Positions 20,548-36,204 of a stretch of DNA of 64,000 nt are shown here, piece after piece; the first letter of the stretch is position 1, and every line of letters begins with the position of its first letter. The position numbers and the translations under genes are program-made. Under the pieces are notes generated by a model. That model searched no databases, had not been told where the DNA came from, and was given only the letters and a program-made list of their open reading frames with translations. The DNA lies in NCBI GenBank assembly GCA_951406725.2, contig OX597815.1:84196001-84260000 (forward strand), written 5' to 3'. Origin of the DNA: Octopus vulgaris. Taxonomy: Eukaryota.

Positions 20548-20599
<52 letters not shown>

Positions 20600-20601
<2 letters not shown>

Positions 20602-20804
20602 TATGTTTGACTTTTGCTTTACATTTGCACAAGCTGGCTCCAAGTCTCACCCAGAGACCTCAAGAGACAACAAGTTGGAAGTTCATGTTGGTGTTATGCC
20701 TAGGGTGCCATATATTTGGTTTTGTACTTAGTGTTTTACTAGTGAATGCCTAAAAAACCATACGAAAACTTGGTTTGTGTTAAAACTTGAGATTACAAAG
20801 AAAG

Positions 20805-20808
<4 letters not shown>
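20600..20808 (-). mobile_element. 3' UTR-only copy of the R4/Dong element at 20841-22045
   Basis: Aligns end to end, with scattered substitutions, to 20841-21050; flanked by (TAA)n. Confidence 0.9.
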
Positions 20809-20840
<32 letters not shown>

Positions 20841-20842
<2 letters not shown>

Positions 20843-22045
20843 TATGTTTGAATTTTGCTTTATATTTGTACAAGTTGGCTCCAAGTCTCACCCAGAGACC
20901 TCAAGAGACAACAGGTTGGAGGTTCATGTTGTTGTTATGCCTAGTGTGCCATATATTTGGTTTTGCATTTAGTGTTGTACTAGTGAATTTCTAAAAAAAA
21001 AAAAACGAAAATTATGTTTGTTTTAAAACTTGAGATTACATAGAAAGTATTTTGCGTAGGATATCTGCAGTTCCCATGTGCACTATCTTTTGAATTTCTG
21101 CCATTTTGGGGTTTTCTGGTATCTGAGTTAGGTAGCAATCAGCCCCTTTTGCTAACCTTCCCAGGGCACCTATGACAACAGGTATTGTTTTAGTCTTCAG
21201 GTTCCACATTTTGATGATTTCTATTTGAAGATATTTATATTTGCTCAGTTTTTGGTATGTCTTGACAGATACGTTTATATCGATTGGGACAGTCATATCA
21301 ATGAGGAGGCATGTTCTTTGTCTGAAGTCTTTCAATATGATGTCTGGCCTATTTGCATCTATCTTTCTGTCAGTTTGAATGGTGAAGTTCCAGAGGAGTG
21401 AGATGTGGTCATTTTCAAGCACTGGAGGTGGTTTGTGTTCCCACCAGTTTTTTTCATGGGGCAAATCCAGGTTTTTGCAAATCACCCAGTGAATATATTG
21501 GGCAGCTCTATCATGCCTGTTGAGATATTCTGTAGGCGCTAGAAGACTGCACTTGGAGACAACATGATCAATGGTTTCACTTGGTTGTTGATTTACACGA
21601 CCTGTTGGACTACTGCCGTTCTTTAATATGTTGGTCTGGTAGTTCCTTGTTGGTAGGCATTGATCTTGAGCTGCTATGATAAACCCTTCTGTTTCAGATT
21701 TTAAGCCAGAGGCCAATAGCCATTGATGTGTCAGGGCTTTGTCAACATCTACATTATTCGCTCTCTTTGGATATTTGCCATAGAGAGGTTTTTCTTGCCA
21801 TTTATCATTCCGAATATCTAAGGCAGCAGTTTTGGCACGGGTTTTCATGCGCTTAGCGTTTTCTGTGCTTGTTTCTTGTATGTCTAATTCCGAAATTTGC
21901 TGTATTCGGAATTCATTTAGATATTCCTTTGTCTGTTTTGTTACTGAGTGTGATGCTTTCTTGTTTTCATGTTTTGAGACAAGTTTTAACATCCTGTCCT
22001 CAGAGTTTTTCAGGTAGGTGTCTAGGTCAATTGTAGCAATCTTCA
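20841..22045 (-). mobile_element. 5'-truncated R4/Dong non-LTR retrotransposon: zinc-knuckle region, restriction-like endonuclease and 3' UTR
   Basis: Open frame 21036-22045 has ETEGFIIAAQDQ, ETIDHVVSKC (first two CCHC cysteines replaced: PTGRVN), YLNRHD, RPDIIL...LLIDMTVP, KLSKYKYL, PVVIGALG. Both ends lie in (TAA)n, the known Dong target. Confidence 0.95.
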
Positions 22046-33428: not shown

Positions 33429-34175
33429 CGTGTGTGGATAAGCACGCCGGTTGTGCACGAGTGTATGCACGTTATGTGTGGAGGCGCGTGCATACATTTA
33501 TATACATATATATATGTATGCATATATATTTGAAATCATCACACAGCGACGCATTCGTATATATATATATATACAGGCATATATGTGTGTAGTTGTGGGG
33601 TGTTTATGGGCGTACGTAAGCGTCTGTATGTTTATATGTGCCTCCATGCAATATCTCTGTGTGTCTCCACATGTGTACTTTCATTCATTTATAAAGTAAA
33701 CGTCCTTTCAAAGCATTCCAAAAATTTGCATATGTCAGTCAGTAAAACAATAGAACTAGCTAAAACCATTCGCGGCATAAACATTCATTATTGTCGTTGT
33801 ATTTCCGTTGTCATTTGTGTATTCTTTAGATGACATATTTCTCGAATTTGTTTCTATCACTCTTCTTGTTTCATCTCATAACAATGTTTCAGTAATGTTT
33901 TTATTAACTTTCAATTTCACAATACAACTGCATTTTCCGTTTATTATTAATGTTTGTTTGTTTTTTTCATTTGCTTTTGTTTTGTCTTTTTTATTCTCTG
34001 TGAAAATATTTATTTAGTATTATGTATGCGATAGATGTTTTTGAATATATGTGCGTGCACGGGCATGTGTATGTGTACGTGCGTGTGCGTGTGCATGTGT
34101 GTTGTGTGAATGGGTGTGTGAATGAGTGGGTGTGTAAGTGTGTGTATGCATGACATATATATATATGTGTATATA

Positions 34176-34226
<51 letters not shown>

Positions 34227-34490
34227 CAATTAAGGACAACTACTTAATAAGGAAAACTTAACAAGAAATTGTCAGGTAGATAGCGTAAGAACCTCATAAG
34301 AGAAAAAATTTCGAAAATAATTATTTCTTATTGAACATATTAATTTATATAAAGAGGGCATTATATACTTGCCAGAAGGCATTATACATACATGCCAAAC
34401 GCTAAGAGGGACAATTAGTCATTTCTACCAAAAATATTACTAATCCCACCGAATGCAATTTTTCAAAGTAAGACATTTAAAAAAATATAT

Positions 34491-34538
34491 AGACCTGTAT
34501 CACAGTGATTTCATACTTACGTACTCATCAGCAGGCCT
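34491..34538 (-). ncRNA. Type I hammerhead ribozyme, copy 1
   Basis: AGGCCUG-CUGAUGA-GUAC-GUAA-GUAU-GAAA-UCAC-U-GUGA-UA|-CAGGUCU: full catalytic core, stems I-III, GNRA loop II. Confidence 0.9.
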
Positions 34539-34972
34539 GAATGCATTATAAATAAACAACGACCCTGCCCCGCTTAAGTCGATCAGCTAACTGTTCAACA
34601 TTCAACGAAGCACATGGGTGAGTTTACATATATTACATCCTGTCAAATGGCAAACTTTTACGAATTGCATTTCGGAAGAGGAAAAGTTTTTTCGGAATAA
34701 AAATTTAGCAGTTAAGGACAACTACTTAATAAGGAAAACTTAACAAGAAATTGTCAGGTAGATAGCGTAAGAACCTCATAAGAGAAAAAATTTCGAAAAT
34801 AATTATTTCTTATTGAACATATTAATTTATATAAAGAGGGCATTATATACTTGCCAGAAGGCATTATACATACATGCCAAACGCTAAGAGGGACAATTAG
34901 TCATTTCTACCAAAAATATTACTAATCCCACCGAATGCAATTTTTCAAAGTAAGACATTTAAAAAAATATAT

Positions 34973-35020
34973 AGACCTGTATCACAGTGATTTCATACTT
35001 ACGTACTCATCAGCAGGCCT
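34973..35020 (-). ncRNA. Type I hammerhead ribozyme, copy 2
   Basis: Identical to copy 1, shifted by 482 bp. Confidence 0.9.
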
Positions 35021-35454
35021 GAATGCATTATAAATAAACAACGACCCTGCCCCGCTTAAGTCGATCAGCTAACTGTTCAACATTCAACGAAGCACATGGG
35101 TGAGTTTACATATATTACATCCTGTCAAATGGCAAACTTTTACGAATTGCATTTCGGGAGAGGAAAAGTTTTTTCGGAATAAAAATTTAGCAATTAAGGA
35201 CAACTACTTAATAAGGAAAACTTAACAAGAAATTGTCAGGTAGATAGCGTAAGAACCTCATAAGAGAAAAAATTTCGAAAATAATTATTTCTTATTGAAC
35301 ATATTAATTTATATAAAGAGGGCATTATATACTTGCCAGAAGGCATTATACATACATGCCAAACGCTAAGAGGGACAATTAGTCATTTCTACCAAAAATA
35401 TTACTAATCCCACCGAATGCAATTTTTCAAAGTAAGACATTTAAAAAAATATAT

Positions 35455-35502
35455 AGACCTGTATCACAGTGATTTCATACTTACGTACTCATCAGCAGGC
35501 CT
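35455..35502 (-). ncRNA. Type I hammerhead ribozyme, copy 3
   Basis: Identical to copy 1, shifted by 964 bp. Confidence 0.9.
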
Positions 35503-35876
35503 GAATGCATTATAAATAAACAACGACCCTGCGTTTGGCATGTATGTATAATGCCTTCTGGCAAGTATATAATGCCCTCTTTATATAAATTAATATGTTC
35601 AATAAGAAATAATTATTTTCGAAATTTTTTCTCTTATGAGGTTCTTACGCTATCTACCTGACAATTTCTTGTTAAGTTTTCCTTATTAAGTAGTTGTCCT
35701 TAATTGCTAAATTTTTATTCCGAAAAAACTTTTCCTCTCCCGAAATGCAATTCGTAAAAGTTTGCCATTTGACAGGATGTAATATATGTAAACTCACCCA
35801 TGTGCTTCGTTGAATGTTGAACAGTTAGCTGATCGACTTAAGCGGGGCAGGGTCGTTGTTTATTTATAATGCATTC

Positions 35877-35924
35877 AGGCCTGCTGATGAGTACGTAAGT
35901 ATGAAATCACTGTGATACAGGTCT
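35877..35924 (+). ncRNA. Type I hammerhead ribozyme, copy 4 (inverted arm)
   Basis: CTGATGA 35884-35890, GAAA 35903-35906, predicted cleavage after A35917; 7-bp stem I 35877-35883/35918-35924. Confidence 0.9.
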
Positions 35925-36070
35925 ATATATTTTTTTAAATGTCTTACTTTGAAAAATTGCATTCGGTGGGATTAGTAATATTTTTGGTAGAAATGACTAA
36001 TTGTCCCTCTTAGCGTTTGGCATGTATGTATAATGCCTTCTGGCAAGTATATAATGCCCTCTTTATATAA

Positions 36071-36113
<43 letters not shown>

Positions 36114-36162
36114 CATACATACATATATATACATATACATATACATATACATATATGTACAT

Positions 36163-36204
<42 letters not shown>

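Follow-up and report, generated by a model that had tools for sequence, protein, structure and literature searches.

Non-LTR retrozymes, as defined in a recent survey (Li, Clavereau and Pollet 2026; 10.64898/2026.07.22.740005), consist of at least two consecutive units, each with a complete type I hammerhead ribozyme, at a minimum free energy (MFE) below -5 kcal/mol. The 35 genomes covered there yield units of 51-972 bp, no mollusc being named in the available portions of that text, and in vitro cleavage is reported for only one of nine dimers (vertebrate). Xenopus retrozymes resemble the pLTRs of Penelope-like elements (PLEs), with pLTR homology in 21 of 57 Xenopus families. Rolling-circle copying of a monomer has been proposed (PMC4209133, PMC7229834). 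As far as the available text of the relevant accounts goes (PMC7229834, PMC4209133, PMC11167929), neither the helper of animal retrozymes nor their way of integrating has gone beyond proposals, and a role for circles in Penelope transposition is likewise proposed and unproven.

The footprint of PLEs themselves comprises partial tandems, an inverted truncated copy, a tail at one end and a bias toward microsatellites (Craig et al. 2021, PMC8557442). According to Frangieh et al. 2024 (PMC11167929), PLE protein cuts AT-rich DNA and extends both its strands, and in vitro the anole element Poseidon uses two internal RNA start sites, which delimit the tail; ribozyme cleavage is dispensable for this element, uncut RNA being the main template. 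Searches of the openly accessible literature turned up no cephalopod retrozyme (the supplements of PMC7229834 may list such repeats) and no account of two-armed, tail or target-site anatomy in retrozymes.

The window, by which is meant the whole 64,000-nt stretch of Octopus vulgaris DNA analysed here, contains an element of 1.85 kb flanked on both sides by (TA)n runs. Its parts, in window coordinates, are these:

34155..34225, no strand: left (TA)n target microsatellite (from the sequence and a repeat call), its last TA common to the element end
34224..35532, minus strand: long arm of 2.7 units of 482 nt, 5'-truncated at unit position 138, its outer end being the fixed 'tail' site T (unit position 482)
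34224..34336, minus strand: tail of ~113 nt between fixed end N (~364-369) and fixed end T (482), at the outer end of the long arm only
34491..34538, minus strand: type I hammerhead 3, predicted cut 34498/34497
34973..35020, minus strand: type I hammerhead 2, predicted cut 34980/34979
35455..35502, minus strand: type I hammerhead 1, predicted cut 35462/35461
34498..34979, minus strand: predicted cut-to-cut monomer of 482 nt, strongly self-paired in the fold prediction
35531..35532, no strand: head-to-head junction, 2 nt (GC) common to both arms
35531..36075, plus strand: short inverted arm of 1.1 units, 5'-truncated at unit position 304, its outer end being fixed site N, without tail; between 36073 and 36078 this end merges into (TA)n
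35877..35924, plus strand: type I hammerhead 4, predicted cut 35917/35918
36074..36200, no strand: right (TA)n-rich target microsatellite

The direct array at 34224-35532 is called as a minus-strand tandem repeat of period 482, with 2.7 copies and 99% matches. The three type I hammerheads described in the original prediction as lying 482 nt apart on this strand are exact and identical, their CUGAUGA cores starting at 35495, 35013 and 34531, and prediction recovers the same three cuts, 35462/35461, 34980/34979 and 34498/34497. Its near-identical units differ at just two positions across the array, 34676 and 34711, and the ORF whose lack it had noted does not go beyond 36 aa, the longest ATG ORF on the circularised 482-nt unit. 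Each hammerhead of the array has a stem I of 7 bp (including one G.U), GAAA, a UA cut site, and a stem II of 4 bp with a closing GUAA loop and a G.U pair at its base; stem III reads UCACUGUGA. A hammerhead descriptor finds four sites in the 64-kb window and none in 100 dinucleotide-shuffled windows, and at all four sites the type I core (CUGANGA / GAAA / UH, with stems I-III, open at stem I) is present. With three consecutive units, each having a complete type I hammerhead, and an MFE of -12.4 kcal/mol, the array falls, by its sequence, under the definition of an active non-LTR retrozyme given above.

As the Rfam models give no match, the hammerhead assignment rests on the descriptor together with covariation. 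The proposed Infernal check with Rfam hammerhead models gave no hammerhead match on 34230-36070 at E<=10, and genome-wide RF00163 scoring of 73 candidates gave six hits, none at the listed places of the 482-nt family; Rfam scans of window and element returned only microsatellite-driven miRNA noise and one hairpin hit. A Pol III box was sought in the 482-nt unit, and none was found. Just before site N there is a 21-nt internal duplication (34353-34397, 34835-34879 and 35317-35361) that is peculiar to this family; sister families B and C, considered below, lack it. Elsewhere in the window, at 20566-21048, a 241-bp unit is present twice, head to tail, the copies being 90% alike and each beginning in (TTA)n; the descriptor found no hammerhead there.

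The original observation is real but incomplete, in that it left out the inverted arm (35531-36078, 548 nt, one difference from the direct arm) and the fourth intact hammerhead inside it (core at 35884, plus strand). This arm is the most informative feature of the element at 34224-~36075. The outer ends of the element do not coincide with the ribozyme cut.

The active fold of the hammerhead is predicted at -9.4 kcal/mol. In the monomer (34498-34979), predicted at -129.2 kcal/mol with z -6.7 against shuffles as a linear fold and z -5.6 as a circular one, pairing is 0.93 for stem I, 0.99 for stem II and 0.02 for stem III, the core pairing instead with the start of stem III at ~0.9 in a core-blocking helix; prediction thus favours an inactive hammerhead core in the monomer. 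Two copies are predicted to co-fold via stem III, leaving the core free. Such folds would fit activity in multimers and a protected circle, as for the dimeric hammerheads in PMC4209133. Stem I covaries, 97% of cells being paired across 10 variants against 69% with partners shuffled, and its swaps include full G-C/A-U exchanges; for stem II the figures are 89% against 77% (seven variants), both comparisons being uncorrected for relatedness. The core is intact in 128 of 129 copies. Its lower mutation rate (0 in 2127 nt compared with 1.6 per 1000) is discounted as evidence because 18 of the loci were chosen by exact core pattern.

The search for other loci suggested in the original prediction found a dispersed family, with 206 matches, on many contigs, at the best 39 of 962 candidates. 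The exact 35-nt hammerhead alone has 337 copies on many contigs of the 2.8-Gb genome (reversed-pattern control 0), and with no ORF above 36 aa and no LTR the 482-nt family has the non-coding, LTR-free and dispersed character of retrozymes. Motifs with the same type of stem III number 1,713 genome-wide, again with a control of 0. The class is already known, and the 482-nt family is probably a new, probably cephalopod, addition to it. Fifty-three loci were analysed, 35 from the best similarity hits and 18 from the first 100 listed exact-hammerhead places, a choice that makes the sample lean to young, complete copies and to contigs C1-C3, the window itself being on C2. Among the sequencing runs listed as carrying the repeat none is registered as RNA; contigs from four runs that are RNA only by guess cover 29, 29, 19 and 21 of 29 unit bins and are uninformative on expression, strand and circles.

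'Very young', as the element was originally termed, holds for the studied insertion, whose units differ by 0.20%, but not for the lineage, in which subfamilies reach down to 63-68% identity. Subfamilies and intermediates at 92-94, 85, 79 and 70% identity share the layout of the family. Sister families B and C, 63-68% identical and with periods of 483-496 nt (480-496 nt over the three sister families), have 3176 and 2246 first-look candidates and a two-armed layout as in family A (L084:3900-4900, L131-L160). One family B copy sits 430 nt from a family A copy. The longest array seen, a 15.6-kb insertion of 31 tandem units with canonical N and T ends (C1:64639650-64655250, L161-L162), carries repeated variant blocks, which point to duplication at the DNA level; it is a retrozyme insertion turning into a minisatellite.

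At least four TA repeats flank both sides in 49 of the 53 loci, compared with 9% of random 40-nt stretches of the window. The unit has two fixed outer-end sites ~113 nt apart, N (~364-369, in an internal TA-rich stretch) and T (482). A head-to-head two-armed layout is present in 37 loci, where 34 pair N with T (33 by script, L084 by inspection), none pairs T with T or N with N, and three have one atypical end. The remaining 16 are one-armed, with the outer end at N in 10, at T in five and elsewhere in one; four of these carry a short inverted stub under the 36-nt cut-off above which an inverted arm was counted. Inner ends are scattered along the unit. Of 31 clean inner junctions (six complex ones were dropped), 19 have an overlap of 2-9 nt, 11 an insert of 1-20 nt, and one is blunt. 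Partial tandems, an inverted 5'-truncated copy, a tail at one end and a microsatellite target together make up the Penelope-like footprint; the tail, at ~113 nt, lies outside the 30-40 nt of PLEs. The fixed position of both outer ends led to the rejection of L1-type twin priming for the two-armed insertions.

The lengths of the two arms do not correlate (Spearman -0.19, p 0.31). In seven of 31 loci the two inner ends lie no more than 20 nt apart modulo 482 (p about 0.013, with the threshold set after looking), which hints at a template end common to both arms. The 5' ends do not accumulate around the cut, 10 of 90 falling in 199-229 where 5.8 are expected. Five of the 90 inner ends start at unit position 303-304 (window 35531; L011, L020, L023, L080, L090), and one outer end stops at unit position 303, after a motif resembling the one that precedes site N; a cryptic start or nick site is perhaps located there. 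At L173:1693-2688 a 776-bp palindrome (99.5%) of old PLE-derived DNA is centred on (TA)n and directly followed by a short copy of the repeat, possibly a fold-back duplication of host DNA at insertion.

Taken with dispersal, the (TA)n targets, two fixed outer ends and head-to-head arms support the original suggestion of a retrozyme mobilised by a Penelope-like RT. The explanation we hold to be the most credible, with reasonable and by no means full assurance, is that the insertion is a copy of a dispersed non-coding 482-nt hammerhead repeat which, as a likely non-autonomous retroelement (non-LTR retrozyme), would owe its copying in trans to a Penelope-like RT/GIY-YIG protein, with circular monomer RNA the probable template.

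The form of the template is approached through the distribution of variants. Sixty variants are fixed in both arms and four, in three loci, are arm-specific. At sites covered at least three times, locus-private variants (private relative to the 53 sampled loci, of perhaps twice as many) are present in all units in nine cases, in some in eight and in one in 100, and for variants shared between loci the counts are 68, four and 30; recurrent singletons number four against 2.8 by chance, three degraded loci being excluded. At the studied locus a private base is carried by all five units, in both arms. Partial variants are arm-specific in L092 and L166 and occur in alternate units in L027 and L079, and the two arms of L098:4010-5330 have different haplotypes, as if two RNA molecules had been used or one arm converted. 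Only L084 to L099 is a candidate for a single-unit variant of a source that became fixed across a daughter array. The large number of haplotypes, each uniform within its insertion, implies that copying has gone through a single unit again and again, as in rolling-circle copying of a monomer. The predicted cut is crossed by 79 of the 90 arms, twice or more by 46, and the crossed sites bear no scars. One haplotype per locus, as a rule, and read-through of the cut site favour a circular monomer template, with exceptions.

The route envisaged would start with a multi-unit transcript cut by its hammerheads, probably best as a stem-III dimer, and ligation of the cut monomer by a host ligase. Once the helper had nicked the two strands of a (TA)n run, reverse transcription would be primed from each DNA end at N or T (compare anole Poseidon in vitro), both RTs passing the cut site and making 0.1 to several rounds of one template. 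Microhomology-type repair would then join the 3' ends of the two cDNAs, and some arrays would grow later at the DNA level. A fuller and more tentative version is that this is a long-lived, pLTR-independent lineage of viroid-sized circular RNAs of ~480-495 nt integrated by twin-primed rolling-circle reverse transcription, in which a PLE-type dimer, primed by the two ends of the cut (TA)n, may start on one circle at two fixed sites separated by 113 nt, both RTs stopping where the shared template breaks.

We consider it unlikely that Penelope-type twin priming instead acts on an uncut multi-unit transcript from homogenised master arrays that are re-expanded by unequal exchange, the hammerhead mattering little. 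Uncut RNA is indeed what the anole PLE mainly uses in vitro (PMC11167929, in the part of that text available), yet covariation of the octopus hammerhead stems extends through a lineage whose identity falls to 63%. The 31-unit array, with its duplicated variant blocks, speaks for this reading, but its haplotype (65A+319A only) is found in no other of the 53 loci; the family is sampled only in part, and unsampled masters may exist. The few loci with variants in some units only have to be set against the many distinct haplotypes, each fixed over both arms, and shared within-array polymorphism is not in excess.

Less probable still is a cut linear monomer on which the RT jumps from the 5' end to a 3' end with no circle. 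It is a poor template in that arms cross the cut, scar-free, and none of the 90 inner ends falls at unit 207-211; intermolecular jumps should also mix haplotypes more than is observed. Unit-length periodicity and mixed loci such as L098 would be accounted for, and run-off at the cut could explain the junction of L023, where the inner end is at 206 and a short stretch has been copied again.

Candidate helpers for a retrozyme copied in trans are present. Three PLE families have intact frames of 775-781 aa and are apparently active (L061 at C16:20834000-20843000; L181-L210, L256-L265), and Pfam RT and GIY-YIG domains are matched in two of them, including the one of 781 aa, which has a C-X4-C-X2-C linker of the kind ascribed to Neptune. 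The first 775-aa family is 46% identical to it, and both insert in (TA)n, leaving tails of about 26-40 nt. Thirty copies of this first 775-aa family comprise 14 ending at T, 12 at N, three read-throughs and one other, and N is paired with T in five of five head-to-head pairs. The second 775-aa family, also intact, is an unlikely helper since its copies end in (CA)n. The tails of the autonomous PLE families seen in the genome are of 26-55 nt, and at the 3' ends of the three intact families there are hammerhead-like motifs with a deviant core, by eye UUGAUAA and CCGAAGA. The protein homologue search gave no informative names.

Whether the repeat is a free retrozyme or the pLTR array of a longer element was left undecided in the original prediction. 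In the sampled loci of four PLE families (the 781-aa one, the two of 775 aa and an older one) a profile of families A, B and C matches no pLTR, no ORF end adjoins the repeat at the 53 loci, with (TA)n on both sides of 49, and the unit contains no RT/GIY-YIG ORF; the element is therefore taken to be free. Against the preferred reading stand the failure of this comparison to single out a helper, the long tail, the uncut main template of the anole element, the loci that depart from one template, the duplicated blocks of the 31-unit array, the predicted inactive core of the monomer and the single cleaving dimer among the nine vertebrate ones. PLE fragments near L038/L081, L082, L132, L163 and L173 were rejected as linked ORFs, as (TA)n intervenes or the break is mid-ORF. 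That the copies are 5'-truncated pLTRs of an autonomous Penelope-like element yet to be found is very improbable: the tandem, inverted and tailed layout is as in PLEs (PMC8557442) and Xenopus retrozymes do resemble pLTRs (10.64898/2026.07.22.740005), each on the available portion of the source, and the genome's PLE families are sampled as an incomplete list, but up to 31 units stand head to tail without an intervening ORF, no ORF end abuts any of the 53 loci, and the period is kept at 480-496 nt in three sister families. That the repeat is an ordinary minisatellite which DNA recombination or extrachromosomal circles have dispersed, with the hammerhead a passenger, is scarcely credible and already largely refuted by the end anatomy: local block duplication in the 31-unit array would suit it, but DNA-level spread would not be expected to give two fixed outer ends, strict N+T pairing, 5' ends that vary and (TA)n targets.

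With a retrozyme copied in trans as the preferred reading, the 482-nt family is of interest for a Penelope footprint that is complete although no ORF is present. Many of its insertions are young and multi-unit, so that the form of the template can be tested from sequence alone, and intact TA-targeting PLE proteins in the same genome open a direct in vitro test of starts at N and T and of circle-derived multimers. If the twin-primed circle reading is true, genomic copies record, insertion by insertion, the circular intermediate so far only proposed for retrozymes and PLEs.

In relation to described systems, on the available portions of the sources, the octopus family shares with metazoan non-LTR retrozymes (Cervera and de la Pena 2020, PMC7229834; 10.64898/2026.07.22.740005) non-coding AT-rich tandem units, each with a type I hammerhead, a highly self-paired predicted monomer and PLEs in the same genome, and 482 nt is within the 51-972 bp range. 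It differs in being longer than the reported invertebrate circles of 170-400 nt and in a stem III of 4 bp rather than the usual 1-2 bp, and, unlike 21 of 57 Xenopus families, it is without pLTR homology (four PLE families compared). With Poseidon of Anolis carolinensis (PMC11167929) it has in common two fixed internal start sites bounding a tail, use of both strands and an AT-rich target, whereas Poseidon is autonomous, uses a linear uncut template in vitro and has its start sites close together; the in vitro work on it leaves the second-strand and joining steps undemonstrated. The likeness to EN+ PLEs of the Neptune type (PMC8557442, PMC4209133) extends to partial tandems, an adjacent inverted 5'-truncated copy, a tail at one end, (TA)n bias and a hammerhead upstream of the ends. 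The octopus unit is set apart from these by having neither an RT nor a GIY-YIG ORF, by a tail of ~113 as against 30-40 nt, and by a hammerhead that is fully canonical where theirs is minimal.
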